Shown here: piece after piece, positions 3,467 to 52,035 of the stretch | Layout of the letters: the number at the start of each line of letters is the position of its first letter | How positions within the stretch are numbered: position 1 is the stretch's first letter | IMG/VR virus record: IMGVR_UViG_3300037297_000161 | Span: 1-52,035 of that record | Strand: one strand, 5' to 3' | From: a virus | Length of the DNA stretch: 52,035 bases | The notes under the pieces: generated by a model | Databases searched by the model: none | The model's input: only the letters and a program-made list of their open reading frames with translations | Told to the model about the DNA's origin: nothing | Program-made: the position numbers and the translations under genes

Positions 3467-5023
3467 ATGTCAATACGACACCGTCTAGATTCGTGGGTCA
3501 ATGTCATCACCGGCCTTGGGAGTGCACTGCGCGACAAGCGCGAGTTCACTCGCTTCCTGCATCGGGCCCGGCTGACCGACACCGAGTTGGACAACCTGTA
3601 CCACGAAGAAGACATTGCAGCGCGCATTGCCGAAGCGCTGCCGGCGGAGGCCTTGCGCCGAGGCTACTATCTCAGCTCGGAAAATGACGATCCTGGACTT
3701 TCCAGCGCCCTTGCCGAGTACGAGAAGCCGCTCCATTTCCGGCGCGCGTTGAAGCAGGCCGCGATTTGGGCACGCGTCTTTGGCGGTGCCGTGATCTACA
3801 TGGGCCTCGAAGATGGACAGCCCGAGGATCAACCGCTGGCGGTGGAGCGTCTGCAAGGCATTCGGTTTTTGCAGGTCTTGGACCGTCGGTACATCTACCC
3901 GATTCAAGAATACAGCGATCAGCAACGGTACGGGGAGCCGGAGTTGTACCAAATTCAGCGTTCAACGCGTCCGTCGTTGGGATCTCAAGTGTCGTTCCAG
4001 CCCGGTGCTGTCATCCACGAGTCCAGGCTCTTGCGATTGGATGGTGCGCTTACCTCGCAGAGCCGCATGGATGCACAGCAGGGCTGGAGCGATTCTGTCC
4101 TCGAGCGCGTGCACGAGGTGATTCGCGACTTTGGATCGTCATGGCAAGCGGTCGGCCATCTCATGCAGGATGCCGCGCAGGGCGTCTATTCAATGCGAGG
4201 CCTCCAGGATGCCGTAGCCAGCGGCGAGACCGATGCCATTCTGTCACGCATTCAGCTTATTGAGGTAAGTCGTAGCGTGGCACGGGCCATCCTCCTGGAT
4301 GCAGAGGAGAAGTTTGAGCGTCAGGCGTACAACTTTCAGGGCATCCCGGATATACTGAAACTACTCATGATTCGTGTGGCGGCTGCCGCGAACATGCCCG
4401 TGATCATACTCATGCGCCAAAGTCCGAGCGGGCTGAATGCGACCGGGGATGCCGATATTCGGCTGTGGTACGATCAGGTGCAAGAGTATCAGGCCGATCA
4501 TCTCCATGATGTGATCCAGCGATTTTACGAGCTCGTGTTCGCGGCTCAGGATTTTGCAGGTCAGGAGCCGGATGAGTGGGATGTCCTGTTTGGTCGCCTG
4601 TGGCAGATGACCGATCTCGAGCAGGCGCAGCTGGAAAAGACCGTGGCGGAGAAAGACAAGATCTTGATTGACAGCGGGATGGTGCTGCCAGAAGAGCTGG
4701 CAGTCAGCCGTTTCAAAGCACGTGGGTTTTCGCTGGATACTCAGATCGATCTCGATGTACGGGCAGAGATACTCGAGGCCGAGCTGAAGCTCGCCAAAGA
4801 GAACGCCGGGAAAGAGCCAGAGCCGCCGTCTATGCCGCCGCAGCCGGGGCAGGACCAAAACAAGCCCCAGATCGCTGACGGCCGTGTCGACAAGATTGAG
4901 CATCGCGGTAGTAAATGGGTGGTGCTCTCCGCCGACGGGTCGAAGGTACTCGGGACCCATGACACGAAAGCGGAAGCCGAAAAGCAGCTGCGCGCCATTG
5001 AGGCTGCCAAGCACAGGCGATGA
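3467..5023 (+). CDS. portal protein
   Basis: 518 aa. Size and position (after terL, before the Mu-F-like gene) fit a portal, and by eye it resembles DUF1073-type portals. C-terminal ~44 aa form a separate KWVV..G..LG.H.TK.EAE.QLRAI module. Confidence 0.8.
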   Translation: MSIRHRLDSWVNVITGLGSALRDKREFTRFLHRARLTDTELDNLYHEEDIAARIAEALPAEALRRGYYLSSENDDPGLSSALAEYEKPLHFRRALKQAAIWARVFGGAVIYMGLEDGQPEDQPLAVERLQGIRFLQVLDRRYIYPIQEYSDQQRYGEPELYQIQRSTRPSLGSQVSFQPGAVIHESRLLRLDGALTSQSRMDAQQGWSDSVLERVHEVIRDFGSSWQAVGHLMQDAAQGVYSMRGLQDAVASGETDAILSRIQLIEVSRSVARAILLDAEEKFERQAYNFQGIPDILKLLMIRVAAAANMPVIILMRQSPSGLNATGDADIRLWYDQVQEYQADHLHDVIQRFYELVFAAQDFAGQEPDEWDVLFGRLWQMTDLEQAQLEKTVAEKDKILIDSGMVLPEELAVSRFKARGFSLDTQIDLDVRAEILEAELKLAKENAGKEPEPPSMPPQPGQDQNKPQIADGRVDKIEHRGSKWVVLSADGSKVLGTHDTKAEAEKQLRAIEAAKHRR

Positions 5024-9067: not shown

Positions 9068-10039
9068 ATGGATCCCCGACTTCTCGCGTTGCTCGACACC
9101 CTCGGCATGGATGAGATCCGCCAGGATGCAAAGTACACCGCGGCGCTGGAGCAGCAACTGGAGTACGTCAAGGCGCAGACCTATGACATCAAGTACCCCG
9201 AGCTGCGCGCGCGCCGCTTCATTCCGCTCGATACCAGTGTTCCGCCCGGGGCCGAGACCGTTGCGTACCAGCAATGGGACGAGTTCGGCATGGCAAAGAT
9301 CTTGTCGAACTACGCTGAGGATCTCCCGCTGGTCACTGCGTTGGCCGAGAAGTTTTTCCAGGGCATCGAAAGTCTGGGTCAAGCCTACGACTACTCGATC
9401 CAAGATCTCGCTCGCAGTGCGATGAGCGGATCTCAGCTCGAAACCCGGAAGGCGACTGCGGCCCGTAAGTTTATCGAGCGGCGGATCGATGACATTGCGG
9501 CCGTCGGCTATCCCGCAGCCAAAATGAAGGGATTCGTCAACCATCCGAACGTCGCGATTGCCTCGGCAACCTCGGATGGCACTAGTGCACGCTGGGTCGG
9601 TGGACGAACACTCCCGAAGGCCCCCGAGGACATCAAAAAGGACATGGCCGACAGCCAGACCACGATCTGGGTCGACACCAAGCAGACCTTCGAGCCGGAC
9701 ACGATCGTGCTCCCGCCGACGGAGTTCGCGCACATCGCAAACACGGATAACCGCGACAACTCGGATAAGTCGATCCTGAACTCGTTCATGGATCGGAATC
9801 TGTCCATCACCAATGTGGACTACTGGCACAAGCTGGCCGAGGCGGATGCGGCCGGCACCGGTCCGCGCATGGTGACCTACAAGCGCTCAAGCGAGGTTCT
9901 CGAGCTGGTCATTCCGCGTGAGTTTGAGCAGCTGCCGCCTCAGGCGCGCATGCTTTCTTTCGTGGTTCCGTGTCATGCGAGGTGCGGCGGCGTGGTTGTC
10001 CGGTATCCGGTCGCCATGCTGTACACGGACGGGATCTAA
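9068..10039 (+). CDS. major capsid protein (DUF2184-like)
   Basis: 323 aa; position, size and strong SD AGGAG fit; by eye it resembles the capsid family that co-occurs with DUF1073/Mu-F/DUF2213; followed by hairpins. Confidence 0.75.
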   Translation: MDPRLLALLDTLGMDEIRQDAKYTAALEQQLEYVKAQTYDIKYPELRARRFIPLDTSVPPGAETVAYQQWDEFGMAKILSNYAEDLPLVTALAEKFFQGIESLGQAYDYSIQDLARSAMSGSQLETRKATAARKFIERRIDDIAAVGYPAAKMKGFVNHPNVAIASATSDGTSARWVGGRTLPKAPEDIKKDMADSQTTIWVDTKQTFEPDTIVLPPTEFAHIANTDNRDNSDKSILNSFMDRNLSITNVDYWHKLAEADAAGTGPRMVTYKRSSEVLELVIPREFEQLPPQARMLSFVVPCHARCGGVVVRYPVAMLYTDGI

Positions 10040-10091
10040 GCCTAGGTTCCACCTCTGCCTAGGCGAGGCCGACAACGGGTGGTTGGCCAGG

Positions 10092-10119
10092 CCCGGCGAG
10101 TGCTACTTGCCTCGCCGGG
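10092..10119 (+). terminator. GC-rich hairpin downstream of the capsid gene (attenuator/terminator candidate)
   Basis: CCCGGCGAG-10 nt-CTCGCCGGG (9-bp stem) followed by TCATTATC. A second 7-bp hairpin (GCCTAGG-11-CCTAGGC) lies at 10040-10064. There is no clean U-run. Confidence 0.35.
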
Positions 10120-10144
10120 TCATTATCACCCGAGAGGTACTCTC

Positions 10145-10645
10145 ATGCCGAAAATTTTTGTATGTCAAGCCCGTGCACTTCACTCTGCGGGAGTGCGTCT
10201 TGTTCCTGGTAAGGCCGGGAACGACGTCACCCAAGAGCAACTCGGCCACATGGAGTCGGACGAACAGTTCAAGCTCTGGTGTCGGCTCGGTTGGGTGGCG
10301 ATTCGTCGGGACAGTGTCGCGGAACCTGGCGACCCGGCACGCGAGGCCGAGGTCGAGGCGAAGATCGCGGAAGTCATAAAGGAGCGCGCGGCTGTAGTAG
10401 CTGCCGCTGAGCCGGGGGATTCGGTTGCGGATGGGCCTGCGGACGCGGATCCCCAGGTGCCGAGGGAGAGTGCTCCTGCTCTGGGACCGGAGTCGCTCAA
10501 GAGTGAAAACGTGATCAAGGCGCGTGAAATGATCGCGGCTTGTGACGATCTGGACCTGCTCTTGTCCTGGTTCGAGAACGACACCAGGCAAACAGTCCAA
10601 GACGCAGTTGAAAAGCGGTTGAACAAGCTGCAGGCTCAGGAGTAG
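10145..10645 (+). CDS. hypothetical head-region protein
   Basis: Track ORF 10079..10645 trimmed to ATG 10145 behind GAGAGG; 166 aa with an acidic Ala/Pro-rich middle. Confidence 0.55.
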   Translation: MPKIFVCQARALHSAGVRLVPGKAGNDVTQEQLGHMESDEQFKLWCRLGWVAIRRDSVAEPGDPAREAEVEAKIAEVIKERAAVVAAAEPGDSVADGPADADPQVPRESAPALGPESLKSENVIKAREMIAACDDLDLLLSWFENDTRQTVQDAVEKRLNKLQAQE

Positions 10646-21444: not shown

Positions 21445-22503
21445 ATGACCTTGACGCCGATTCCGTACTGGGCAACTGATGTCGATCGCACTGTAGAGCC
21501 CAGCGCTGGCGAAAAAGCAACTGGTTGGCAGGCCGGCTATGCCCCGCCGGCCCGCAAAATGAATTGGATTTTGAATCAGTTGGCTGAGGCGATGCGCTCC
21601 CAACTGGTCCTCAATCTCGCAAATCTGAGCGCGCGAGACTCCGGAGGCGGCGCCACGAATACGTACTTTGGGCTGGCGCATGACGGCTCTGGGCTGTGGT
21701 GCGCAGTCGGGGCCAACGGAGAGATTCAGACGTCGCCTTGGGGGATTACTTGGACGGCGCGCACGGCCGCTGGGGGATATTCAAGCACGTTCAATGCGGC
21801 GGCCCATGATGGCTCTGGGCTGTGGTGCATCGTCGGCGCAAGCGGCGAGATCCAGACTTCACCGGACGGAAATACTTGGACAGCCCGGACCGCCGCAGGT
21901 GCCTATGCAGGTACCTTTCAAGGGATTGCACATGATGGATCCAGCCTCTGGTGCGCTGTGGGCTCGTCTGGCGAAATCCAGACGTCACCCGACGGAATTA
22001 CCTGGACAGCTCGAACAGCGGCGGGCGCCTATTCTGGAACGTTTTACGCCGTCGCACACAATGGAGGCGGCCTCTGGTGCGCGGTCGGATCTGGAGGCGA
22101 AATCCAAACCTCCCCGGATGGCATCACCTGGACGGCCCGCACTGCAGCCGGTGGTTATTCGGACGCCTTCAAATCGATCACCTATGGCGCTTCACAGTGG
22201 TGTATTGCAGGCCATGCGCATGCGCTGCAGACATCGCCTGACGGTATTACCTGGACAGCACAAACCACTGCCACTGGATTTCTGGGGGCGTCGGATGATT
22301 TCGAAAGCGTTGACTACGATGGCGCACAAGTCTGGTGCATTGTCGGATCGTCCAAAGAGCTCCAAGTCTCAGTAGACGATTGTGTGACATGGACAAGATA
22401 CCCGCTGGATGCATCGACGGGGCTGAATGAGATCCGCTACGGAATCAATAGTTGGATAGTGACGGGCGCGAGTGGCGAGCTGTTTCAGTCTTTGCGGATC
22501 TGA
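21445..22503 (+). CDS. tail fibre / receptor-binding protein with seven-blade Asp-box (BNR-like) beta-propeller
   Basis: Start moved to ATG 21445 (8 nt after GAGGAG). N-terminal ~70 aa resemble fibre attachment regions. These are followed by seven ~42-aa repeats, each with W..VG..GEIQTSPDGITWT (S-x-D-x-G-x-T-W). Confidence 0.65.
   Translation: MTLTPIPYWATDVDRTVEPSAGEKATGWQAGYAPPARKMNWILNQLAEAMRSQLVLNLANLSARDSGGGATNTYFGLAHDGSGLWCAVGANGEIQTSPWGITWTARTAAGGYSSTFNAAAHDGSGLWCIVGASGEIQTSPDGNTWTARTAAGAYAGTFQGIAHDGSSLWCAVGSSGEIQTSPDGITWTARTAAGAYSGTFYAVAHNGGGLWCAVGSGGEIQTSPDGITWTARTAAGGYSDAFKSITYGASQWCIAGHAHALQTSPDGITWTAQTTATGFLGASDDFESVDYDGAQVWCIVGSSKELQVSVDDCVTWTRYPLDASTGLNEIRYGINSWIVTGASGELFQSLRI
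21667..22500 (+). repeat. Seven in-frame ~126-bp coding repeats (propeller blades)
   Basis: Blade starts at about aa 77, 118, 160, 202, 243, 288 and 329 of the track ORF. Confidence 0.85.
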
Positions 22504-27234: not shown

Positions 27235-29289
27235 ATGCGTTATCTTGTCTTTGTTCTTGCCTGCTTGCTGACTTCTACGGCCCTTGCCGAGACCCAAACC
27301 GTCAAACAGGCCCGGCTGCGTAATGCGCTGCGGGCGACCGGGATGGCCGGCACATACGCGAATCAGTGCCTGGCCGGATTCGCGAATGTTTACTACTACG
27401 ACACCTATGTCGAGCTCGCGGCCGCGACCCCGACCGAGGGGGTGTTCGGGTGGGCCATCGACACCGATGCCATGTATTACTACACCGGCTCAGCCTGGAC
27501 GGCGCTGCTCAGTGCCTCGAGCGCGGGGCTGCTGGGCACCAACGGGGGCACCATTGGCAATGAAACCAACAACGTATGGACCGTAGCTGAGAACGGCGAA
27601 GATTTCACTGTCACCTTCGCGGCCAATTCTGCCACGTTCGCGAGCGGAACCGGCTCCTTGTTCACATTCACGCCAGCAACCACATTCTCTGGAGACGTGA
27701 GCTTCGGCGGAGGCGCAGGGGCTTTGAATCTGTCAGGATCCGGGGACTCAACGATGCTCGTCGCCGACGCGGACGCGACCGCTTGGTGTGCCGGCGCCAC
27801 CGGAGCCCTGGATCTGGTTTGCTTGGATACGACCGACGCAAGTCCGGCACTCGATATCAAAGGAGTGACAACTCAGGTCGCCTTGCATGTGGATGTTGGG
27901 ACAGCGCAATTTGACGAAGGCTTCACCAGCACCGGGGATATCGTTCTCAATGGCGGGGCGGGCGGACTCAACATGTCGGGATCCGGTGACTCGACGATGC
28001 TCGTGGCCGATGCGGACGCAACTGCCTGGTGTGCGGGTGCAACCGGTGCACTGGATCTGATCTGCTTGGATACGACCGACGCAAGTCCGGCGCTGGACAT
28101 CAAAGGCGTAACGACTCAAGTCGCCTTGCACGTGGATGTTGGCACCGTGCTGATTGATGAAGATCTCGCCGTGGGCGGCGGGGCCGGGGCTCTCAATGTA
28201 AGCTCAAGTGGAGATGCGTCCATGCTTGTAGCCGATGCGGACTCGACCGCGTTCTGTACAGGCGCCACCGGAGCCCTGGATATCTTATGCATCGACAGCA
28301 CAGATGCCAGCCCGGGGGTGGTTGTCAAAGGGCTCGCCAATCAGACATCGTTTGCTGTCTCGGCAGGAGACGCCACGTTCGCCGAGGATGTGACAATCGG
28401 CGACGGCACGGCGGCTACTGATTTCAGTCTGACTTTCAACGGCGAGGACAGTGATGGCGTTTGCACGTGGATGGAGGACGAAGCTCTGTTCGACTTCGAC
28501 CACGGCCTGCAAATCGACGGCTCAAGCACGATCGGTGATGGCACCGCGGCCACTGACTTCAGTCTGACTTTCAACGGCGAGGACAGTGATGGCGTTTGTA
28601 CGTGGATGGAGGACGAAGCTCTGTTCGACTTCGACCACGGCCTGCAAGTCGATGGCTCAAGCACAATCGGTGATGGCACCGCGGCCGCTGACTACACTCT
28701 GACTTTCAATGGAGAGGACAACGACGGTACGATTACGTACATGGAGGATGAGGACCGCTTCGACTTTGACAACGATGTCGTGGTGGGCAATGATCTGACC
28801 GTCACGGCAGATGTCACGGTCGCGACCTTGGATGCCGCGGTCCCTGCTATAGCGCTGCACGAGATTCGGTTCTGCGGCAATGGGCCAAACGGTAACACGA
28901 CTGTCTACAATGGTCCCATCCTCGAGACCGACATGGACACAGACATGACCTTCGGGGCGGCGGGCTGTGATGCGAACGACAGCACGACAGAAACAAATGT
29001 CGACGATGCGCCGATCCCATTCGCGTACAAGCCAGTGGCAATGGCGTGTCTTCTCGCCGCCGGGGGAACGGACGATACAGTGACGTTCCAGTTGCGCGAG
29101 GACCAATCGGACGTGACGGGCCTCACGTGCAACGTGGTCATGGACGGGGCGAATGCACAGCAGTGCGTCGTGAGGCTAGCGGCCCCCGAAACGGTGGCCG
29201 CCGGAAGTCTGATTGACGTGTCAATGGTCGCTACCGACGACAACCTCAGCGCCATTGATGCCGAGTGCCGGGTCTTCGTGACGTTCTGA
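27235..29289 (+). CDS. exported fibre/adhesin-like repeat protein
   Basis: 684 aa; textbook signal peptide MRYLVFVLACLLTSTALA|E; three ~80-aa repeats followed by three 45-aa repeats; last gene of the + strand arm. Confidence 0.7.
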   Translation: MRYLVFVLACLLTSTALAETQTVKQARLRNALRATGMAGTYANQCLAGFANVYYYDTYVELAAATPTEGVFGWAIDTDAMYYYTGSAWTALLSASSAGLLGTNGGTIGNETNNVWTVAENGEDFTVTFAANSATFASGTGSLFTFTPATTFSGDVSFGGGAGALNLSGSGDSTMLVADADATAWCAGATGALDLVCLDTTDASPALDIKGVTTQVALHVDVGTAQFDEGFTSTGDIVLNGGAGGLNMSGSGDSTMLVADADATAWCAGATGALDLICLDTTDASPALDIKGVTTQVALHVDVGTVLIDEDLAVGGGAGALNVSSSGDASMLVADADSTAFCTGATGALDILCIDSTDASPGVVVKGLANQTSFAVSAGDATFAEDVTIGDGTAATDFSLTFNGEDSDGVCTWMEDEALFDFDHGLQIDGSSTIGDGTAATDFSLTFNGEDSDGVCTWMEDEALFDFDHGLQVDGSSTIGDGTAAADYTLTFNGEDNDGTITYMEDEDRFDFDNDVVVGNDLTVTADVTVATLDAAVPAIALHEIRFCGNGPNGNTTVYNGPILETDMDTDMTFGAAGCDANDSTTETNVDDAPIPFAYKPVAMACLLAAGGTDDTVTFQLREDQSDVTGLTCNVVMDGANAQQCVVRLAAPETVAAGSLIDVSMVATDDNLSAIDAECRVFVTF
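27706..28398 (+). repeat. Three in-frame ~240-bp coding repeats (GGGAGALNLSGSGDSTMLVADADATAWCAGATGALDL..)
   Basis: Copies 1 and 2 are almost identical at the protein level but differ at many synonymous third positions; copy 3 is more diverged. Confidence 0.9.
28393..28797 (+). repeat. Three in-frame 135-bp coding repeats (TIGDGTAATDFSLTFNGEDSDGVCTWMEDEALFDFDHGLQ.DGSS)
   Basis: Copies 1 and 2 are nearly identical at the DNA level; copy 3 is diverged. Confidence 0.9.
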
Positions 29290-29433
29290 TCGTGCCTGTA
29301 CCCACTCCTCTTCCTCTCGATCCACGATCTCGCTGAAGTGTACATCACATAGGTCCCGGCCGCGGAACGTGACCGTAGCTAGCCGGCGGCAGCGCGGGGC
29401 CTGACAGACGCACGGTTGAGAGGGGTTCAGCAT
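29221..29433 (-). CDS. small Cys-rich (zinc-ribbon-like) protein
   Basis: 70 aa; CVCQAPRC..LCDVH; its 3' end overlaps the 3' end of the convergent 684-aa gene by 69 nt. Confidence 0.45.
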   Translation of the reverse strand: MLNPSQPCVCQAPRCRRLATVTFRGRDLCDVHFSEIVDREEEEWVQARSERHEDPALGINGAEVVVGSDH

Positions 29434-29705
29434 GCCTCATCCCAGCGAATGAAGAGACCGAAGTGGCTGTCACCGTAGCTGTGCCTCGACAAGATCAGAC
29501 AATATCCGTCCCGCTCCATGGCCGCCCAGGCTTGTCTCAGTTGCGCCCCGTACCGTTCAGAATTTGGTACCACCACAGTGCAGGACATCTTGCCTTCAGC
29601 GGCTGCGCTCACGATAGCGTCCTGCCATGTGCGCCAGAACTCGTTTTCGGCTGGATCACCAGACAAGAAATCCAGTGCGGTCGCGCGTGCTTCTCTTGCG
29701 TTCAT
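29427..29705 (-). CDS. hypothetical protein, I-S/R-W family member
   Basis: 92 aa; SD GAGGTGA; C-terminus MERDGYCLILSRHSYGDSHFGLFIRWDEAC. Confidence 0.6.
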   Translation of the reverse strand: MNAREARATALDFLSGDPAENEFWRTWQDAIVSAAAEGKMSCTVVVPNSERYGAQLRQAWAAMERDGYCLILSRHSYGDSHFGLFIRWDEAC

Positions 29706-29713
29706 GATTCACC

Positions 29714-30064
29714 TCACGCCGAAAAGGCGCGGCTTCCATTACACCGGTCTCGCTTGCTGCGGGCGACTTGATTTCGCTCGCTGCGCCACTGGGAGGCCTC
29801 CTGCATGCTCGTCCAGTACTGCTGCGGGACGCGCGCCTTGCAAAAAGGTACCCACCGTCCGGCTGCATCATTCACGAGTCCAGCGCGCAGCTTGGCCGAT
29901 ACCAACTGACGCTTGCATCGACAGGAACCCTTCGGCTTGTCTGTTTTTCGTCCACCGCGAATCACTGCCATGGTGTCTCCGTGGGCAAGCTCGTCAGGCG
30001 CGGCATGCCCAGGCCGCACGACCGGGCGGACCCGGTTTCGCTTCAGTCGGTCACCGAGCGCCAA
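29714..30064 (-). CDS. hypothetical basic protein
   Basis: 116 aa ORF on the operon strand; start uncertain (internal ATG gives MAVIRGG..); Arg/Lys-rich composition, so weak. Confidence 0.35.
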   Translation of the reverse strand: MALGDRLKRNRVRPVVRPGHAAPDELAHGDTMAVIRGGRKTDKPKGSCRCKRQLVSAKLRAGLVNDAAGRWVPFCKARVPQQYWTSMQEASQWRSERNQVARSKRDRCNGSRAFSA

Positions 30065-30255
30065 ACCACTCGATAGCGGACAACGACAGTGCCCAGATAC
30101 GAGCAGCAGTCACAGACGCCGCCGAGCTCATTGATGTGCCCGATCAGCTCCTGGCAGCCGTGGTCGTCTTCAATCAAGACACCGGCCGCAGCTAGGTCGG
30201 CTTTCTCAAAATCTTCGAAGGTGCCTTCGAAGGGGATCCATTCCGTTTGGTTCAT
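30043..30255 (-). CDS. hypothetical protein
   Basis: 70 aa; SD AGGAGAG inside a 24-nt element repeated before the next gene upstream. Confidence 0.55.
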   Translation of the reverse strand: MNQTEWIPFEGTFEDFEKADLAAAGVLIEDDHGCQELIGHINELGGVCDCCSYLGTVVVRYRVVWRSVTD

Positions 30256-30644
30256 TTGATCTCTCCTGTTGATGGTAGTGCCGAGACAGCGCCAGACAGG
30301 CTAGGACCGGCCGCGCTCTCTCGAGGCTGCCGCTCATCGCTCCCGGCGAGTGCTGCCAGAGCCTCACGCAATTGGTCCTCGTATGCCGCGAGAGCCTCGA
30401 TGTCGTCGGATGCCCATGCGGCTGGGTCGTCGCCGACCAGGCAGGCGTCGCAGTTGCACGGGATGGATCCGGCGCCCACGCTCAGTAGACGGCGGTTGCC
30501 GAGACGACGATCATTGACGTCGACGTCGTGGTAGGTCTCGATCTGGCCATCACTGTTGAGCTCAACTCGGTAATACCCGGGCTGGTGGCTCATGACCGAG
30601 ATCTCGCCGATGAGTGCGTAGATGATGAGTGGGTCGATGTCCAC
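30252..30644 (-). CDS. hypothetical protein
   Basis: Track ORF 30252..30842 trimmed to GTG 30644, 6 nt after AGGAG; the discarded N-terminal extension is Arg/Gly-rich junk-like sequence. Confidence 0.5.
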   Translation of the reverse strand: MDIDPLIIYALIGEISVMSHQPGYYRVELNSDGQIETYHDVDVNDRRLGNRRLLSVGAGSIPCNCDACLVGDDPAAWASDDIEALAAYEDQLREALAALAGSDERQPRESAAGPSLSGAVSALPSTGEIK

Positions 30645-30679
30645 GGTGATCTCCTGTTGATGGCAGTGCTGGCTCGGGA

Positions 30680-31201
30680 CTACTGCTCCGCGGCCCAGGC
30701 GTCGCGATACATGCGGGCAACCTCGGCCCGGGCGCTCTCCTGGTCGTGCTCGCAGATGGCATCCTCGATCGCCTGCGTTAATGCGTCGTCGTCGTTTTGA
30801 TCCGCCGGATCCGAGATGATGGCGTCGAGCGCCACCTCGCACACCGCGACCGCCCCAAGGTCTCCAGCCCTGAAGGCTTCCTTGGCGAATTGGCAGATCT
30901 GCTCGTCGGTGATGGTCTCTCCGGTCAAGGTCTCGCGCCAGTCAGATGCCTGCTCCATGCGCTGGGAGTCGAAATCCGCATTGGCATCCACGCGCAGCTG
31001 CTCGTAGCGAGCTGCCTCCGCCTCGCTGATGACTCGGGCACACTCGGCGCGGGCCTCAGTGACTGTGCTTCTATCTGGCAGACAGCTATTGATTCCGAGG
31101 GCCCGGAGGCAGAGGGCTACCTGCTCGAAATCTCCCCTTTCGGCTGCCGCCCGCTTGAGCTGCTCGATCTGGGTGTCAGTGATGTTGACGATTGTGGTCA
31201 T
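30680..31201 (-). CDS. hypothetical protein with internal duplication (ITD.QI..(8-9)..GD...VA.C..AL twice)
   Basis: Track ORF trimmed to ATG 31201 (ATGA overlap); 173 aa; acidic. Confidence 0.55.
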   Translation of the reverse strand: MTTIVNITDTQIEQLKRAAAERGDFEQVALCLRALGINSCLPDRSTVTEARAECARVISEAEAARYEQLRVDANADFDSQRMEQASDWRETLTGETITDEQICQFAKEAFRAGDLGAVAVCEVALDAIISDPADQNDDDALTQAIEDAICEHDQESARAEVARMYRDAWAAEQ

Positions 31202-31344
31202 CTTGGTCTCTTGTTGGTCTTGATGGGTGCGATCTTGCCGGTCTCCAGGGCCACCGCGTAGTCGAGCAGCGCGATCCGCTCCTCGAGCGTGGCGGCCGTG
31301 CGGGCGGCGCGGCGGGCCTGCTTGGCTTGCTGTGTGGTTGTCAT
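31198..31344 (-). CDS. small basic protein (48 aa), not in the ORF track
   Basis: MTTTQQAKQARRAARTAATLEERIALLDYAVALETGKIAPIKTNKRPR; ATGA overlaps at both ends fill the gap between the flanking genes exactly. Confidence 0.5.
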   Translation of the reverse strand: MTTTQQAKQARRAARTAATLEERIALLDYAVALETGKIAPIKTNKRPR

Positions 31345-31724
31345 GAGATCTTGCTCGCGACCATCGGGTCAAGAGGATGACCGTACACATCGTAGGACCG
31401 GCTGTAGTCGCCCAGATCTTCCAGCTCGGCGACCTTCTCATCGCGCGTCATCTCGCGAGCGGCGGCTTGCTCGCGCTCGTGATGCGTGGCCATGTCCTGC
31501 ACGCGGGCATCCAGGAGCTTCGCTTTCTGGGCCTCGGTCAGCTGCTTGCCCTTCGGCTTCCGGACCAAGCGCTTACCCTTCGCCGCCATCTCGTGTCCGG
31601 ACTCGTCTGTCACGACGCCATCCCAGATGCGCTTGCGGGCCGACGCCACATTCAGCCCCTCTATCCGCGTCCCATCAGCCAGTGTCAGCGTGTAGGTCAT
31701 CGTCTTCCCTTTGTTTGCGTTCAT
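31341..31724 (-). CDS. hypothetical protein, first gene behind regulatory cassette A
   Basis: 127 aa from ATG 31724 (same ATGAAC start as the gene behind cassette B); alternative ATG 31700 behind AAGGGAAG. Confidence 0.55.
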   Translation of the reverse strand: MNANKGKTMTYTLTLADGTRIEGLNVASARKRIWDGVVTDESGHEMAAKGKRLVRKPKGKQLTEAQKAKLLDARVQDMATHHEREQAAAREMTRDEKVAELEDLGDYSRSYDVYGHPLDPMVASKIS

Positions 31725-31914
31725 GACCTCTTACCATAGCACCAGCCGTGCCAATTCTGTCCGTAGCGATTACAGCCACATAGGACGATCACCTCGCAAA
31801 TCTTGCATGCCGCTTGAGCCCAGACCGCGCAAAGTTTGCATACCGGTAATAAAATCAACAGGTTCGCACCGCGTCAATGCAAATATTGCGGACTTTGCCC
31901 GATCTACCTGAAAT
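31722..31914 (-). promoter_or_regulatory. Regulatory cassette A: three TGCAA-N3-TTGC dyads plus TTGGCACGGCTGGTGCT (-24/-12-like, 31753-31738)
   Basis: Its reverse complement aligns over its whole length with 50274-50455 (roughly 80-85 percent by hand alignment, with one 10-nt and one 1-nt indel). Confidence 0.6.
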
Positions 31915-31926
31915 TACTCAGGAATA

Positions 31927-32175
31927 TCAAAGGCCCTGGCGCGCCCTGAGCGCCTCCATGACATGCGAGATGGCTCGAGATAGCTGGAGATGCGAGCTGG
32001 CCGCTGAGCTCCGCACCAGAGCCTCTGGTGCAGTCTCATAGGCTATCTCTAGCTCGCGGCGCGCGTGGTACAGCAACGCCAACGCGCGTTGTAGGTCGGC
32101 GACCGATAGCGCCTCAGTGTCTCCCTCAAGGATTTGTAGCGCCGCAGCGAGATCGTCAGATAGGGTGTCCGTCAT
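31927..32175 (-). CDS. hypothetical protein
   Basis: Track ORF trimmed to ATG 32175 (ATGA overlap, GGAG 7 nt upstream); 82 aa; last gene of the long - strand arm. Confidence 0.5.
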   Translation of the reverse strand: MTDTLSDDLAAALQILEGDTEALSVADLQRALALLYHARRELEIAYETAPEALVRSSAASSHLQLSRAISHVMEALRARQGL

Positions 32176-39254: not shown

Positions 39255-39493
39255 TAGGGCTCCAACAGTCGAACAGCACGAAGCCGCACGCGTCGTTTGC
39301 GTGGGCCGCATCTGGCTCCCACTACGAACTCGGCGGTTCGAGCCGCACCGTCACTCCGCCCTGAGATGCGGACGGTCTCGCCCGGACGAAACATCGCCCC
39401 GGCGAGCGGCTCAACCACTAGGACATCCCCGCGGCGTTGGATGATAGCGGCGCTCCGCCCGTCAGCGGTTGCTAGCATTTTGTAGGAGGTCAT
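39254..39493 (-). CDS. hypothetical protein
   Basis: Track ORF trimmed to ATG 39493 (ATGA overlap with the methyltransferase-like gene); 79 aa. Confidence 0.45.
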   Translation of the reverse strand: MTSYKMLATADGRSAAIIQRRGDVLVVEPLAGAMFRPGETVRISGRSDGAARTAEFVVGARCGPRKRRVRLRAVRLLEP

Positions 39494-40071
39494 TTTTCCC
39501 ACACCTGCGCATGGCCGTGCTTGGCCAATCGGTTCCGGAAGGCGGAATCAGCAGCCCAGCGGCCGTCAAGCACTAGTGTACTCGGGAAGGTAGCGCCTCC
39601 GGAGTGTTTGTATTTCTCGCCTTTGCGTTTGGCCTCGGCTCGGAGAAACGCGATCTCCTCTTTCGACCGGATGAATTTAACCCGCTGCCGAAGTGCTATC
39701 GTCGTGCACGGAAACTCCGGGGCCGGCAAGGCCCGGAAGTGATCCTGCTTGAAGACCAGGAAACCGCCATGAGCCCCTCGAAAGATCGCGTCCTGCCACA
39801 CGCGCCAGAACCATTCGACTCGGGTGCGCGGTCCTGGCGGATTGCACCACAGCACCGAGTCCGAAGATACAGGCACCTGCGGCGGGCACGGATCTGCCTC
39901 AGACCAATAGCGCATGGCCCGCACAATCTCCTGGTGCTCCTCGCATGAGGCAAGATCATGTGTGAAAGGGCCGTACAGATCCCGGACAATCTGCAGCACA
40001 TGGTCTGGTGTGCCCCAGTTGTCAGAGTACATGCCTCGAGCGCGTGAGGTGTGATCTGAGGGCCGGGTCAT
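39490..40071 (-). CDS. DNA methyltransferase-like protein (phage Dam-type fold) with atypical NPPG motif
   Basis: Track ORF trimmed to ATG 40071 (ATGA overlap); DNWGTPDHV..FTHDLAS and LWCNPPGP motifs resemble the phage N6-adenine methyltransferase family, but the aromatic residue of (D/N)PP(Y/F/W) is Gly. Confidence 0.5.
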   Translation of the reverse strand: MTRPSDHTSRARGMYSDNWGTPDHVLQIVRDLYGPFTHDLASCEEHQEIVRAMRYWSEADPCPPQVPVSSDSVLWCNPPGPRTRVEWFWRVWQDAIFRGAHGGFLVFKQDHFRALPAPEFPCTTIALRQRVKFIRSKEEIAFLRAEAKRKGEKYKHSGGATFPSTLVLDGRWAADSAFRNRLAKHGHAQVWEK

Positions 40072-40568
40072 AGCGGCAACCAATGCGCAAAAGGGCCTGG
40101 AGGATCGGGAGGGTCCTCCCATTCGTCCGAGGTCACCCCTCGCAACTCCATTTCCAAGAGCATGAGCGCTGACCAGGCCATGTGGGCCAGATGCGGCAGA
40201 CGGCTGCCTTCATTCCGCCGCGCCTCAGGGAGCTCGTCACCATCACGGACAAAGCCGAGCCGCCGCAGCTGAAGATGCCGCCACAACGCATCTTCGTAGT
40301 AGTGCATGCCGTCGGCTCGCGCTGACTGCCAGTTGTTGGGCCCGTGTTTGCCCTCGCCGTACATACTGACTTGATGTACGGCGGTTAGTGCGCGTCGGAA
40401 CGGCTCCGATTTCTTCGAAGCCGCAGCGATCTTGGAATCGACCTCTGGCTTGGGCTCGATCTCAGGTGCATCCTCACACGGCTCCCAGCTATGGTGGCCT
40501 TGATCATTGCAGCCCGGCGGGCACACGCCTCGGCGGTATCTACATGTCTCACATGCGCGCACGGTCAT
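40068..40568 (-). CDS. MazG/MazZ-like dNTP pyrophosphohydrolase (dATP/dGTP diphosphohydrolase N-terminal-domain family) with Cys-rich N-terminus
   Basis: Track ORF trimmed to ATG 40568 behind GAGAGAG; GEGKHGPNNW .. DALWRHL .. SRLPHLAHMAWSALMLLE matches the KYGxxNW / RHL / SGLxHLAHA signature. Confidence 0.65.
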   Translation of the reverse strand: MTVRACETCRYRRGVCPPGCNDQGHHSWEPCEDAPEIEPKPEVDSKIAAASKKSEPFRRALTAVHQVSMYGEGKHGPNNWQSARADGMHYYEDALWRHLQLRRLGFVRDGDELPEARRNEGSRLPHLAHMAWSALMLLEMELRGVTSDEWEDPPDPPGPFAHWLPL

Positions 40569-40723
40569 GGTGCTCTCTCGCTTTCCTCGACAACGGCCCC
40601 GGTCGGACCAGAGCACAACACCCCGAACGCGCCCGCGAGAGCAGCGATCACGGCCAAATAGATGGCCCCTCCGATCACAGCTTTCCCAAGGGGCGTCAAT
40701 ACAGAATGCCACGTGCGTCTCAT
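40565..40723 (-). CDS. small single-TM membrane protein (52 aa), not in the ORF track
   Basis: MRRTWHSVLTPLGKAVIGGAIYLAVIAALAGAFGVLCSGPTGAVVEESERAP; SD GAGGTG 4 nt upstream; ATGA overlap with the next gene. Confidence 0.55.
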   Translation of the reverse strand: MRRTWHSVLTPLGKAVIGGAIYLAVIAALAGAFGVLCSGPTGAVVEESERAP

Positions 40724-40743
40724 CTGTCACCTCTGGTTTCGGA

Positions 40744-43754: not shown

Positions 43755-44141
43755 CTACCTCTCAAAACGTGACCGGTACTGCTGCAGCCACATCATCGCA
43801 CCCGCCAGCGAAGACTCCACATGAACTCGTGGATCAAAGTAGAACGGCGAATCTGGGAAGCTCTTACCGTCTGGCCACCTTTCACCAACCAGCAGAACAT
43901 GCTTGCCGAGTCCGAGAGCGTAACCCATCTCGGTATGAGCCCCAAGACGACCGGGTAGAATCAGCATAAGCAAGTCCGCCTCCCGCACCCCGCGCAAATC
44001 TCGCTCCGAGATCCAGGCTGGATCCGAGTCTTCATCCTCATCAGTCCAATCGCAGGTGATCTCCCATCCCGGTGGAAGCATCGAAACAGCTCGCCGGAAT
44101 TCATCGCGGTTGTACCAGCTAGTGGCGATATAGATCTTCAT
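43755..44141 (-). CDS. nucleoside 2-deoxyribosyltransferase-like protein
   Basis: Track ORF trimmed to ATG 44141 (ATGA overlap); MKIYIATSW .. GAHTEMGYALGLGKHVLLV pattern of the NDT/Rcl superfamily. Confidence 0.6.
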   Translation of the reverse strand: MKIYIATSWYNRDEFRRAVSMLPPGWEITCDWTDEDEDSDPAWISERDLRGVREADLLMLILPGRLGAHTEMGYALGLGKHVLLVGERWPDGKSFPDSPFYFDPRVHVESSLAGAMMWLQQYRSRFER

Positions 44142-44536
44142 GCGGCTCCATCCTCTCGGCCCATGTAGTAAGCCTGGTTGAGCAGTTCGTACAGATCCGA
44201 TATGTCGAGCAATGTCTGACTCGCGGTGATCTCTTGCAGGCAAGCCAGCACTTTTGCGGACAACAAATCACATGCCCGTCGCACCAGCTCTTCAAGCCGG
44301 GATTTCTCGAGCCCAGAAATCCTCTTCGCGTCGTACTCGCGCGCCCGGCCCAAGGCATAGCACAGGCCAAAATACGGTACCACAACGCGCCCGTCAACAC
44401 ACACGTTGCCGCCGGTGTGAAAAAGAATGGCCCGCTGAATCTCCTGGTGCACGGCGCGCATAAAAGCCTCACGCACACGCAGCAGCGCCAGATCCTCGGC
44501 CGCGGTGGTGTACTGTTCGCCGTTGATTTCAGACAT
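44138..44536 (-). CDS. hypothetical protein
   Basis: Track ORF trimmed to ATG 44536; 132 aa; start uncertain (weak SD). Confidence 0.45.
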   Translation of the reverse strand: MSEINGEQYTTAAEDLALLRVREAFMRAVHQEIQRAILFHTGGNVCVDGRVVVPYFGLCYALGRAREYDAKRISGLEKSRLEELVRRACDLLSAKVLACLQEITASQTLLDISDLYELLNQAYYMGREDGAA

Positions 44537-44756
44537 CGGTGCCCCATCGCGCATGTGTGGACGGAGGCAGACGCCGCAACGCGCGCGTCTCTCGCTCAAG
44601 AGCACAGAGGGGGCACTCGTAGTCACCGTACCAGATAGCGCACTCCTCACACCAATACGGCGTGAGCTCCCGACGATGCTGGCGCCGAGCGCGCAGCCAC
44701 ACCGTCACAAACATTAACACCCACGCCCACAGCAAGATCAAGAAAAAGACAAGCAC
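44529..44756 (-). CDS. small membrane-anchored zinc-ribbon protein
   Basis: 75 aa; N-terminal TM segment LVFFLILLWAWVLMFVTVWL followed by CEEC..CPLC. Confidence 0.5.
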   Translation of the reverse strand: MLVFFLILLWAWVLMFVTVWLRARRQHRRELTPYWCEECAIWYGDYECPLCALERETRALRRLPPSTHARWGTDV

Positions 44757-49551: not shown

Positions 49552-49579
49552 TTAGCATTAAATTTAAAAATAATATAAT
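49552..49579 (+). promoter_or_regulatory. sigma70-like promoter TTAGCA-16 nt-TATAAT
   Basis: Perfect -10 hexamer in the AT-rich core; would give a ~260-nt leader before the 49846 gene. Confidence 0.4.
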
Positions 49580-49797: not shown

Positions 49798-49825
49798 TTG
49801 ACATTGCCTTGTCGTCTGGTACCAT
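49798..49825 (+). promoter_or_regulatory. sigma70-like promoter TTGACA-16 nt-TACCAT for the 49846 gene
   Basis: Same geometry as the leftward promoter; followed by AGGAGGTGATCT-ATG. Confidence 0.5.
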
Positions 49826-49845: not shown

Positions 49846-50205
49846 ATGCGGTGGCCGTGGATGATCGAAGGCGTTCGTAAAAGGTTAAAGATCTCAGAGA
49901 GATACAGGTCAACTTGGGGATGTAGACGTCAAGGCCTGTACAAAAAAGATTTTGCGATCCTGGGAGAGGCTGTGCTCATGTACGTGCTCAACCAGTCTTT
50001 CGATTCCGATACCTTGCATGCGGCAAGTCCGTTGGCGGCTGATATCTACCAACGCCTGCTTGCTGGGGAACAGGTACTCGAGCCCACGGCTATGGAGAAG
50101 GCTTTGGCAGAAGAACTCGAAGCCATCGGCGAAGCACAGCGACAGGCTCAGCATGAGAAGGTGCTCAGGATCTTCGGCGGACGCTCAGGCTCCGGAGGGC
50201 AATGA
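49846..50205 (+). CDS. hypothetical protein (regulator by position)
   Basis: 119 aa; very strong SD AAAGGAGGTGATC; sits alone between the early control region and cassette B. Confidence 0.6.
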   Translation: MRWPWMIEGVRKRLKISERYRSTWGCRRQGLYKKDFAILGEAVLMYVLNQSFDSDTLHAASPLAADIYQRLLAGEQVLEPTAMEKALAEELEAIGEAQRQAQHEKVLRIFGGRSGSGGQ

Positions 50206-50224: not shown

Positions 50225-50253
50225 TTGAGAATGATTATCATAATCATTCTCAA
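50225..50253. promoter_or_regulatory. 29-bp perfect palindrome TTGAGAATGATTAT-C-ATAATCATTCTCAA
   Basis: 20 nt after the stop of the 49846 gene and 20 nt before cassette B; no clean U-run follows. Confidence 0.5.
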
Positions 50254-50273
50254 GATTGAATATTTCAGGAACG

Positions 50274-50455
50274 ATTTCAAGTAGATCGGGCAAAACCTGC
50301 AATATTTGCGATGACGCGGCGCGAACCTGTTGATTTCATTACAGGTCTGCAAACTTTGCAGAGTGATCCGTGCAGAACTTGCGAGGCGATCTTCTTAACT
50401 AGCTGGAATCGTTACAGATTGAGTTGGCACAGCTTGTGCTATGGTATAGGGTATG
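50274..50455 (+). promoter_or_regulatory. Regulatory cassette B: three TGCAA-N3-TTGC dyads plus TTGGCACAGCTTGTGCT (-24/-12-like, 50424-50440)
   Basis: Aligns with the reverse complement of 31722-31914 down to the shared ATGAAC start codon. Confidence 0.6.
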
Positions 50456-50857
50456 AACAACACAACAAGACAGATTGACTGGACGACGGCGGACGGTGCC
50501 ACGGTAACAGTCACGATCAAGATCGTCACCTCGGAGACCATCAAGGCTGACGGGCAGTGCATGGTGGTTGACACATGCAAGTGGTCTGAGACCGTCCGCC
50601 GCGATGGCAACTACATGGGCAGCGATATCCAGCGCATGTCCCCGGCGCAGGTCGGGTTGATCGTGTGCACAGGACACTGCGGTCGACAGCCCATACCGGC
50701 CGATGTCATGGATCAGATCGATATCTACCGCGCCGAGCTCCGGGCCACTGCGCTCTGGACGGATCATGTGGCCAAGATCAATCAGCATCACTGCAAATGC
50801 GATGAGTACGACGCGTCCATCAGCCGCATCGTCAAGATCAACAGTGGCACCTACTAG
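50453..50857 (+). CDS. hypothetical protein, first gene behind cassette B
   Basis: 134 aa; no real SD (consistent with a leaderless start); Cys/His-rich (CTGHCG, HHCKCDEY). Confidence 0.55.
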   Translation: MNNTTRQIDWTTADGATVTVTIKIVTSETIKADGQCMVVDTCKWSETVRRDGNYMGSDIQRMSPAQVGLIVCTGHCGRQPIPADVMDQIDIYRAELRATALWTDHVAKINQHHCKCDEYDASISRIVKINSGTY

Positions 50858-50873
50858 CCGCTTGGGGGCTTAC

Positions 50874-51086
50874 ATGACTCAGCCTGTTGACGCCTGTGTT
50901 CGTTTGATTCTCTTCCGCGTGACTTGCACGTGTTGCGGGGCTGAGTACACTGCCGCAGATTGGGCAGGCCTCAACGACATCGGGGTCCAAGAGGTCCCGG
51001 GCGTGGCGCTCGAGCTGCGCAACTGCCCCTGTGGCACCACGCTCTCATACCTGCTCGCGGACACCGGCTACGGGATGGTGCTGTGA
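50874..51086 (+). CDS. small zinc-ribbon protein
   Basis: Track ORF trimmed to ATG 50874; 70 aa; CTCC .. CPC. Confidence 0.5.
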   Translation: MTQPVDACVRLILFRVTCTCCGAEYTAADWAGLNDIGVQEVPGVALELRNCPCGTTLSYLLADTGYGMVL

Positions 51087-51286
51087 TGTACGTGCGACCT
51101 ATCCGGATGTACTTCGATGATTCCCGCGGTGAGCGCACAATGCTCGTGCATGTCTCGAAAAAATCTCGATGGCAACACACGGCCCAAGCCGTGACACGCT
51201 TGGCAAAGTGCCAACGCTGGGAGGTGGCTGGTCCGGGAATGACGTTGTTGCCAGGCGAATTTTACCCGACGTGGCTTGTGGATTGA
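51086..51286 (+). CDS. hypothetical protein
   Basis: Track ORF trimmed to ATG 51086 (TGATG overlap); 66 aa. Confidence 0.45.
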   Translation: MYVRPIRMYFDDSRGERTMLVHVSKKSRWQHTAQAVTRLAKCQRWEVAGPGMTLLPGEFYPTWLVD

Positions 51287-51328
51287 CAATCGTGCTCGAG
51301 TAGGGCACGCTGCTGGAAGAGGTGACAC

Positions 51329-51532
51329 ATGTGGCGACAGCGAATGAGATCTGCACGGTTCCGGGCCAAACGAAAAGGCCACTCGATCGAGGATATCCGG
51401 GACTACTACACAGCAGTTGAGAATCGGAAGGCGATCGCGCGAGGTCTGATGGACCCATCTGATATGCTGCGACATCAAGCGGTAGCATGGATGGGGTATG
51501 ATTTTGAATTACGAGTTCTGCGAGTGAAGTGA
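51329..51532 (+). CDS. hypothetical basic protein
   Basis: 67 aa. Confidence 0.45.
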   Translation: MWRQRMRSARFRAKRKGHSIEDIRDYYTAVENRKAIARGLMDPSDMLRHQAVAWMGYDFELRVLRVK

Positions 51533-51538
51533 GCATGC

Positions 51539-51796
51539 ATGACCCAATACTCTCCGATCGGCCAACGGATTCACGCCGCAGAGCACCACATCGCCCATCT
51601 GCATCGACAGCAACAGATCGAGGCCGAGTATTTGGCCTTGGCTCTACCGCCGACGAAATACGAGACGCTTACGATCGAGACGTGGAGATTACCTATCACT
51701 GGTACTGCCCCGAATTCTGTGGTGTCAGTATGTCACCCCCAGGACCTGATTGACCTCCTGTGGCGACGCGCCGTATCGGCGATCAAGTTTTGGTGA
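51539..51796 (+). CDS. hypothetical protein
   Basis: 85 aa; preferred over the overlapping 51529..51753 frame on amino-acid composition. Confidence 0.45.
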   Translation: MTQYSPIGQRIHAAEHHIAHLHRQQQIEAEYLALALPPTKYETLTIETWRLPITGTAPNSVVSVCHPQDLIDLLWRRAVSAIKFW

Positions 51797-51883: not shown

Positions 51884-52035
51884 GTGAACACGAAGCGCCC
51901 GAACCTGAAAGAACGAGCGAAGCAAGCGACAGAGCAAGCGACAGAGCAAGCGACAGAGCAAGCGACAGAGCAAGCGACAGAGCAAGCGACAGAGCAAGCG
52001 ACAGAGCAAGCGACAGAGCAAGCGACAGAGCAAGC
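51884..52035 (+). CDS. N-terminal part of the wrap-around (ATEQ)n ORF (VNTKRPNLKERAKQ + ATEQ repeats)
   Basis: Frame open from 51839; the only plausible start is GTG 51884 with a weak SD (GCTGAG); same reading frame as 3..266 when the 112-nt terminal overlap is collapsed. Confidence 0.35.
   Translation, partial: MNTKRPNLKERAKQATEQATEQATEQATEQATEQATEQATEQATEQATEQ
51924..52035. repeat. Tandem array, 9 perfect 12-bp units plus 4 nt; identical to nt 1-112 (direct terminal repeat of the contig)
   Basis: Read directly. Confidence 0.97.

Follow-up and report, generated by a model that had tools for sequence, protein, structure and literature searches.

Two inverted, outward-facing cassettes with the features of enhancer-dependent sigma-54 promoters bracket the early module of an uncultured phage

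The phage genome analyzed here (hereafter the window, the whole stretch of 52,035 nt) contains two inverted copies of an intergenic cassette, named A1 (50274..50455, + strand) and A2 (31722..31914, - strand), which bracket the early/replication genes and face outward. Judging from their motifs and geometry, both cassettes are likely to be enhancer-dependent sigma-54 promoters, served by the host sigma-54 RNA polymerase and a host NtrC-family activator. Sigma-54 dependence in vivo, a host-encoded activator, joint regulation of the two operons, and their timing are what we infer from these features; the proposed co-regulation follows from the promoter and activator sites that the two copies share.

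Genome organization

The window represents an essentially complete phage genome of ~51.9 kb of JGI metagenome origin, and an identical copy occurs in a Logan assembly. Megablast revealed no DNA match of the window to any phage record and no close cultured relative. The closest cultured-phage proteins showed ≤42% identity for TerL (among the 30 best TerL matches) and ≤28% for PolA, and the protein search with the primase was without match. Genes for TerS (270-842), TerL (1372-2886), and the portal protein (3467-5023) were assigned by PHROG matches on the + strand. TerS opens the + arm of packaging, structural, and lysis genes, which extends to 29289 in the ORF map and includes an endolysin among its ORFs. 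The early/replication arm (31927 to approximately 49445, - strand) encodes, according to Pfam, a DUF5906 primase/helicase, a PD-(D/E)XK nuclease, a MazZ-like protein, a Dam-like methylase, a helicase, and PolA. Sigma-70-like promoters in the divergent region at 49.4-49.8 kb (49436-49409(-), 49552-49579(+), and 49798-49825(+)) serve the early arm, and A1 precedes TerS, TerL, portal, and the structural arm: the unit behind A1 begins with the genes at 50453..51796 (+ strand), runs on over the junction through TerS, TerL, and portal, and reaches its end at 29289 after the structural and lysis genes.

The original prediction had placed the meeting point of two converging transcription units at 29.2-29.3 kb, which is where the gene arms end. 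The - arm terminates at 29221 and the opposing 684-aa ORF on the + strand at 29289, so that the last ORFs (684 aa, +; 70 aa, -) overlap by 69 nt. No terminator-like structure was found at 29221-29289, and converging transcription at this point would collide within coding sequence.

Several other features of the genome were observed. A single 12-nt tandem array (AAGCGACAGAGC) spans both window ends (1-265 and 51886-52035). It is coding: the ORF with the start GTGAAC at ~51886 specifies (QATE)n and stops shortly ahead of TerS. A sigma-70-like TTGACA lies at ~51850. An analogous gene with a different repeat occupies the same place in a relative (L026). In the early arm, the regions 39490-40730 and 43755-44650 encode a MazZ-like dATP/dGTP diphosphohydrolase domain, the Dam-like methylase, and a nucleoside 2-deoxyribosyltransferase-like protein, which may constitute a module for DNA base modification. 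No gene resembling PurZ was seen. Five relatives found through PolA (L169, L171, L174, L176, and L178) share the MazZ-like domain, some of these together with the Dam-like gene. In addition, distal structural genes (21661-22164 and 27709-28797) contain in-frame internal DNA repeats (126 nt x4, ~211-243 nt x3, and 135 nt x3), typical of repeat-domain tail fibre or receptor-binding proteins.

The cassette pair

A2 had been proposed to be a second, inverted copy of 50274-50455 with ~80-85% identity, one 10-nt indel, and one 1-nt indel. Alignment by MAFFT (31700-31930(-) versus 50255-50480(+)) bore this out, giving a mean column identity of 84% and one 10-nt gap, with the 1-nt indel directly before the ATG (GGTCATG versus GGTATG). 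The inverted-repeat search recovered the pair as two segments, I1 (31829-31914 / 50274-50359, 86 nt, 88%) and I2 (31732-31807 / 50371-50446, 76 nt, 78%), which make it the top inverted repeat of the genome by far (runner-up, 41 nt at 73%). The early arm bracketed in this way measures 18.4 kb. Both cassettes end exactly at a start codon, each facing a gene array, and A2 comprises a complete putative enhancer-promoter unit from the start of similarity to the ATG. The gene layout around A2 was also as expected, with the stop codon of the upstream ORF at 31927 (13 nt from the cassette) and eight small genes from 31724 to 29221 in the source gene calls.

Hairpins within the cassettes do not fold more stably than shuffled sequence (z -0.97 and +0.86), and hence the cassette has no built-in terminator. 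Two sequences cannot support covariation for a conserved RNA structure, and Rfam and tRNA scans gave no match. Searching viral contigs with an exact 16-mer of the cassette produced 25 matches, all of them chance hits over only 16-21 nt. Upstream of A1, a perfect palindrome with a 13-bp stem (TTGAGAATGATTAT-C-ATAATCATTCTCAA, 50225-50253) lies between the cassette and a small early ORF (49846-50205, 119 aa, function not assigned). It has no T-tract and no counterpart at A2, folds modestly better than shuffles (z -1.8), and could be an operator or a weak terminator.

Promoter elements and predicted start sites

The -24/-12 match reported earlier at 31753-31738 is real, with one mismatch; the 17-mer given for it (TTGGCACGGCTGGTGCT, 31738..31754, - strand) begins one base earlier, at 31754. 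The elements read TGGCACGGCTGGTGCT at 31753-31738(-) and TGGCACAGCTTGTGCT at 50425-50440(+), and only one other site in the window comes as close (one mismatch at most) to TGGCAC-N5-TTGCW. Each copy has the form TTGGCAC-N5-GTGCT, in which G in place of the first T of TTGC is the sole mismatch, and the GG(-24)-GC(-12) spacing is exactly 10 bp within the sigma-54 consensus. The -24 region of A2 (TGGCACG) is nearer to consensus than that of A1. The extended core TTGGCAC-N5-GTGCTATGG occurs in the window at the two cassettes only. A1, A2, and the cassette of a relative (L171, see below) share TGGCAC and TGC without change, and likewise the ATGG that follows the -12 GC. Two properties count against a sigma-54 reading: the -12 element is GTGCT rather than TTGCW, and TGCTATGG, whose invariance goes well past the known need of sigma-54, doubles as an extended -10 (TGnTATGGT).

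Setting the C of GC as -12 places the predicted +1 at 31727 in A2, 50451 in A1, and 9767 in L171, in each case 2-3 nt before a conserved ATGAAC. The value for A2 agrees with the new 5' end that the original prediction expected at about 31727; the predicted start (G at 31727) and ATGAAC (ATG 31724-31722) of A2 fall within 31722..31727 (- strand), and the corresponding ATG of A1 is at 50453. The transcripts are thus predicted to be near-leaderless. Another in-frame ATG with a Shine-Dalgarno sequence follows 8-9 codons later in A2 and in L171. In A2 this ATG (31700-31698) is associated with the Shine-Dalgarno-like AAGGGAAG and is where the Logan gene call starts (119 aa, P0001). There is no alternative in-frame start in A1, and therefore at least the A1 gene would need leaderless-type initiation. 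This geometry either weakens the model or is an additional peculiarity of the system.

Upstream dyads

Each copy carries three TGCAA-N3-TTGCR dyads, in line with the claim that the two regions share the same set. The window contains 19 matches to TGCAAANTTTGCR on both strands against 6.4 expected, a number reached in none of 100 shuffles, and 11 of the 19 fall in the two cassettes. In A2, dyad 1 (CGCAATATTTGCA, 31878..31890), dyad 2 (TGCAAACTTTGCG, 31828..31840), and dyad 3 (TGCAAGATTTGCG, 31795..31807) are centred at ~-157, ~-107, and ~-74 from the predicted +1, respectively. The dyads of A1 are located at 50298-50310, 50348-50360, and 50371-50383, upstream of its -24/-12 element (50424-50440), and their centres are at ~-147, -97, and -74. 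Dyads 1 and 2 are 50 bp apart in both copies, and dyads 2 and 3 are separated by 33 bp in A2 and by 23 bp in A1. Dyad 3 lies ~50 bp from the -24 GG in both copies, and all distances other than that between dyads 2 and 3 are equal. Both copies therefore have the layout of upstream activator sequences of NtrC-family proteins, that is, at least two dyads ~70-200 bp upstream with whole-turn phasing. Dyad 2, which has no mismatch to TGCAAANTTTGCR and is kept in A1 and L171 (TGCAAAGATTGCG), is the best-conserved putative activator site.

Counterparts in bacterial genomes

Because the phage has almost no relatives, the architecture was sought elsewhere. The pattern TGCAANNNTTGC-N8-38-TGCANNNNTTGC-N30-60-TGGCAC-N6-TGC (26 fixed bases, 961 gap combinations) was run against both strands of 596 Gb and returned 48 matches (18 bacterial genome loci and 30 metagenome loci), compared with ~0.25 expected by chance according to our own estimate. 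A match of the two-dyad pattern in the viral collection was on the same contig as one of the 48. Among 34 dereplicated loci, the positions left free by the pattern follow the consensus: each palindrome is completed by its A in 23/34 and 27/34, TTGC has its T in 22/34, GC is followed by A/T in 30/34, and TGGCAC by a purine in 28/34. The bacterial loci thus fit the sigma-54 consensus. At nine loci, the dyads are immediately downstream of an ORF with a GAFTGA motif. Three of these nine ORFs were scanned with Pfam and NCBIfam, and all of them contain Response_reg, Sigma54_activat, and HTH_8 domains, which makes them NtrC-family response regulators and the dyads a site type used by identified bacterial enhancer-binding proteins (bEBPs). 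The activator subfamily is left unnamed, since the adjoining bEBPs are below every NCBIfam equivalog cut-off (AtoC, NtrC, PEP-CTERM regulator, and ZraR).

Dyad spacing at the 34 loci clusters at 21-23 and 31-33 bp. The phage values, 23 bp in A1 and 33 bp in A2, match these two classes, so that the 10-nt indel corresponds to one helical turn; the proximal gap of 42 bp in the phage is also inside the bacterial range. The cargo of the look-alike promoters includes ZraP-like periplasmic proteins, T_hemolysin, a glutamate symporter, cytochrome b561, and P-II. The presence of the same dyads at bacterial promoters beside bEBP genes indicates that they are a widely used bEBP site type and that the phage cassette reproduces a bacterial design. 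The earlier reading of the -24/-12 element as a promoter is strengthened by this common layout, as well as by the invariance of its two motifs in L171.

Search for an activator gene

No GAFTGA motif was found in a plausible ORF in any frame of the window (a single GAFSGA match adjoins a stop codon), and neither an RpoN box nor an HTH_8-like (Fis-type HTH) motif was present in any frame. There was no AAA+ candidate outside the primase/helicase, and Pfam and PHROG scans of the non-structural proteins detected no Sigma54_activat domain, sigma factor, transcription regulator, or DNA-binding domain. The window thus encodes no bEBP, sigma-54, or HTH_8 protein. Moreover, the genes directly upstream of the three cassettes (A1, A2, and L171) are mutually unrelated. 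Sigma-54 holoenzyme cannot open promoters without a bEBP, an activated ATPase. If the cassettes are sigma-54 promoters, the activator must then come from the host, and a host NtrC-family activator probably controls both of them.

Conservation in phage relatives

The PolA search revealed a family of uncultured relatives. Two of them, L171 and L172 (PolA 66% and helicase ~77% identical), are syntenic with the window as far as the homolog of a 297-aa gene, and they have a cassette in the equivalent intergenic gap (TGGCACGGGGCATGCTATGGATAGGGGCATGAACGCA). In this cassette, dyad 2 precedes the -24 by 71 bp, a distance also found in A1, and is itself preceded at 51 bp by a degenerate dyad 1 (CGCGAGTTTTGCG). 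All three cassettes agree in TGGCAC, TGCTATGG, ATGAAC, and dyad 2, whereas the TGGCAC-to-TGC spacer has only one invariant base of six and the flanks have diverged; the L171 cassette is overall too dissimilar to be detected by blastn. The gene behind it has no homolog in the window, and the A2 operon is not conserved in L171, which suggests that the cassette keeps its place at the edge of the early module and that the genes behind it are exchanged. In L169 (PolA 69%), the first bases of the cassette are present at the contig end. Two observations in this family were counted against the sigma-54 reading. In L171, dyad 2 alone is clearly kept, with TGTCA-N7-TGACA at the position of dyad 3, and within 10 kb of PolA, relatives with PolA ≤64% are without the small-gene operon or at least without the cassette. 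The loci of PolA relatives sourced from NCBI are also without the cassette.

Within L171 (9574-9756), TGTCA-N7-TGACA is a perfect dyad, and a similar GGACA-N7-TGTCC is located farther upstream; an 8-bp inverted repeat (GCATGCCC/GGGCATGC) encloses the -24 element in its loop.

Searches by other routes were also carried out. The contigs of the TerL relatives L026 and L049 end before the position at which an A1 equivalent would be expected, and a look-alike in L026 (GTGCTACGGT...GTGAAC) proved to be part of the repeat-bearing gene before TerS and no cassette. The primase and the 297-aa protein, used as anchors, identified nothing in viral contigs, in which the promoter-core pattern also had no match. 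A looser single-dyad pattern gave nine matches in viral contigs, mostly in coding sequence, with those in L160 and L164 appearing intergenic. L164 (IMGVR_UViG_3300037198_000150, GC 68%) has TGCAATCTTTGCA, then TTGGCACGCGTCATGCT, then tgtaagacaggtcATG at 2249-2345, with a near-leaderless layout as in A2, a similar GTAAGA..GGTCATG stretch, and no detectable protein similarity to the window.

The operon behind A2

The eight small genes behind A2 (29221..31724, - strand) received no family assignment, as Pfam and PHROG gave no match for their products except for one marginal PHROG hit of the 70-aa ORF (E 0.0098). No transmembrane helices were predicted in these proteins. The possibility that they form a lysis cassette was rejected, given that transmembrane helices and lysis domains are lacking and that an endolysin is among the + arm ORFs. 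No paralogy was found between the first genes behind A1 and A2. The homolog search with the first gene behind each cassette detected one diverged homolog only, in L107, an unrelated phage without the cassette. This 63-kb phage, also present in the source metagenome 3300042731, has different neighbouring genes and encodes at 10001-10450 a homolog of the first A2 gene with 48% identity, preceded by an ordinary-looking upstream region. The L107 homolog suggests that the A2 genes are mobile accessory genes. As the L171 cassette drives a different cargo, the A2 set looks like an exchangeable accessory module.

Proposed mechanism and alternatives

In the mechanism that we favour, host RNA polymerase with sigma-54 would occupy TTGGCAC-N5-GTGCT as a closed complex, and an NtrC-family enhancer-binding protein (an AAA+ ATPase with a C-terminal Fis-type HTH) would bind the TGCAA-N3-TTGCR dyads, assemble on one helix face, and use ATP to drive promoter opening. 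Transcription would then start 2-3 nt ahead of the conserved ATGAAC. A1 would fire rightward into the packaging, structural, and lysis genes, and A2 leftward into the exchangeable accessory operon. Since the activator would be host-encoded, a single input could switch on both outward-facing units around the sigma-70-driven early module.

An alternative, to which we give a low probability, is that the core is a sigma-70 extended -10 (TGcTATGGT) without a -35, driven by a phage-encoded dimeric activator that binds the dyads, and that the resemblance to -24/-12 is incidental. Classical phage late activators provide the model for such an arrangement. The invariance of TGCTATGG in A1, A2, and L171 would be explained in this way, because TG-n-TATGGT fits and TGCTATGGT is an extended -10 motif; the A of ATGAAC lies 8-9 nt past the hexamer, which would yield a truly leaderless mRNA, and the small early ORF just upstream of A1 could be taken as a candidate gene. 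However, TGGCAC has precisely the spacing of a sigma-54 element and is unchanged in three cassettes with diverged flanks. By our own estimate, this would cost the extended -10 reading ~1 in 4096, compared with ~1 in 16 for a -10 look-alike under sigma-54. Moreover, the hexamer of L171 is TATGGA, without the critical final T, and the same dyads occur in bacteria together with sigma-54 promoters and bEBP genes. The scanned phage proteins contain no DNA-binding domain, and unrelated genes precede the three cassettes. The invariance of TGGCAC at exact spacing, the TATGGA of L171, and the bacterial tie between dyads and sigma-54 place the extended -10 reading below sigma-54.

It is similarly improbable that A2 is a decayed duplicate with little promoter activity and that 31724-29221 owes most of its expression to read-through from the early arm. 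The stop codon at 31927 is only 13 nt from the cassette, and with no convincing terminator between the early arm and A2 (the hairpins behave like shuffled sequence), read-through could also express the small genes. Decay is hard to reconcile with A2 itself, in which all functional motifs are intact, the -24 is closer to consensus than in A1, and the indel is exactly 10 nt, so that phasing is kept. A syntenic cassette is also kept in L171 and begins in L169, despite 25-35% divergence of the neighbouring DNA and a change of cargo. That the repeats are instead DNA-level elements (recombination or inversion sites, replication-origin iterons, or packaging signals), as inverted copies around an 18.4-kb arm and repeated dyads that can be iterons might suggest, is very improbable, given that the copies end at a start codon and face a gene array, that motifs and geometry match sigma-54 enhancer-promoters, that L171 keeps the promoter motifs and not overall identity, and that no recombinase gene was found in the window.

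On the favoured sigma-54 reading, a wider and distinctly tentative proposal is that the packaging, virion, lysis, and accessory genes (~33 of 52 kb) are wired to one host two-component sigma-54 activator, so that the step from replication to particle formation becomes conditional on a host signal, with the cassette being portable and carrying a different cargo in each relative. If this were true, the signal would perhaps be one that is set off by infection, for example the envelope or metal stress sensed by ZraSR-type systems, and the arrangement would amount to a repressor-free decision switch. Morphogenesis genes controlled by sigma-54 in a phage without its own ATPase would mean that the late programme is placed under a host signalling pathway. 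As the putative activator sites are explicit, duplicated, and matched to sites adjoining bEBP genes, the identity of the licensing host regulator and its signal are directly testable.

Comparison with known systems

Bacterial sigma-54 promoters with NtrC-family regulators include glnAp2 with NtrC, zraP with ZraR, and atoD with AtoC. The phage cassettes resemble bacterial NtrC-family promoters in the -24 GG and -12 GC, in the paired 13-bp dyads of the TGCA type 70-160 bp upstream, and in whole-turn spacing. They differ in that they reside in a phage genome in two copies with no cognate activator or sensor kinase gene nearby, have three sites with the nearest at ~-74, carry GTGCT at -12, and have a predicted leader of 2-3 nt. 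LuxO-type sites (TTGCA-N3-TGCAA) are also 13-bp dyads with TGCA half-sites that are bound by an NtrC-family HTH upstream of sigma-54 promoters. The TGCA cores are 9 bp apart in the phage dyad (TGCAA-N3-TTGCA) and 7 bp apart in the LuxO site, and this resemblance is a lead only.

Our full-text literature search found no phage example of sigma-54 use besides Pseudomonas phage YuA. To our knowledge, the activator acting on YuA has never been identified. According to the passage of PMC10914365 that cites Ceyssens 2008, host sigma-54 drives promoters in the YuA region for particle formation (structural genes) and lysis. In the YuA record (NC_010116), three promoters in the structural region are annotated as '-24/-12 consensus'. 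YuA (Yuavirus) and the window phage are alike in being siphophages of virulent type with PolA and without their own RNA polymerase or activator. They show no detectable relation, with YuA absent from the 30 best TerL matches (≤42%), and neither kinship to YuA or M6 nor a shared promoter sequence was found, which leaves the resemblance functional only. In the annotated promoter fragments of YuA, TGCAA-N3-TTGCA dyads are absent and the coding strand shows no more than weak -24/-12 matches, whereas the window phage has duplicated cassettes with a full set of putative activator sites at both borders of its early module.

A further case may be a 51.2-kb phage contig with no detectable similarity to the window (L157, IMGVR_UViG_3300027863_000050, identical to L144). 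At 2200-2890, ~4.5 kb upstream of its large terminase gene, it contains three GCAAAATTTGC dyads and nine TGGYAY-N5-TTGCW sites within ~600 bp (0.03 expected), seven of them on one strand. Such an array would be an extreme cluster of sigma-54 promoters or else a sink for sigma-54, and use of this strategy by uncultured phages may be commoner than published work indicates. Enhancer-dependent sigma-54 promoters as such are known; the unusual features of the candidate promoters described here are the outward-facing duplicates that serve as bookends, the explicit putative activator sites with no phage activator, the exchangeable cargo, and the predicted near-leaderless geometry.
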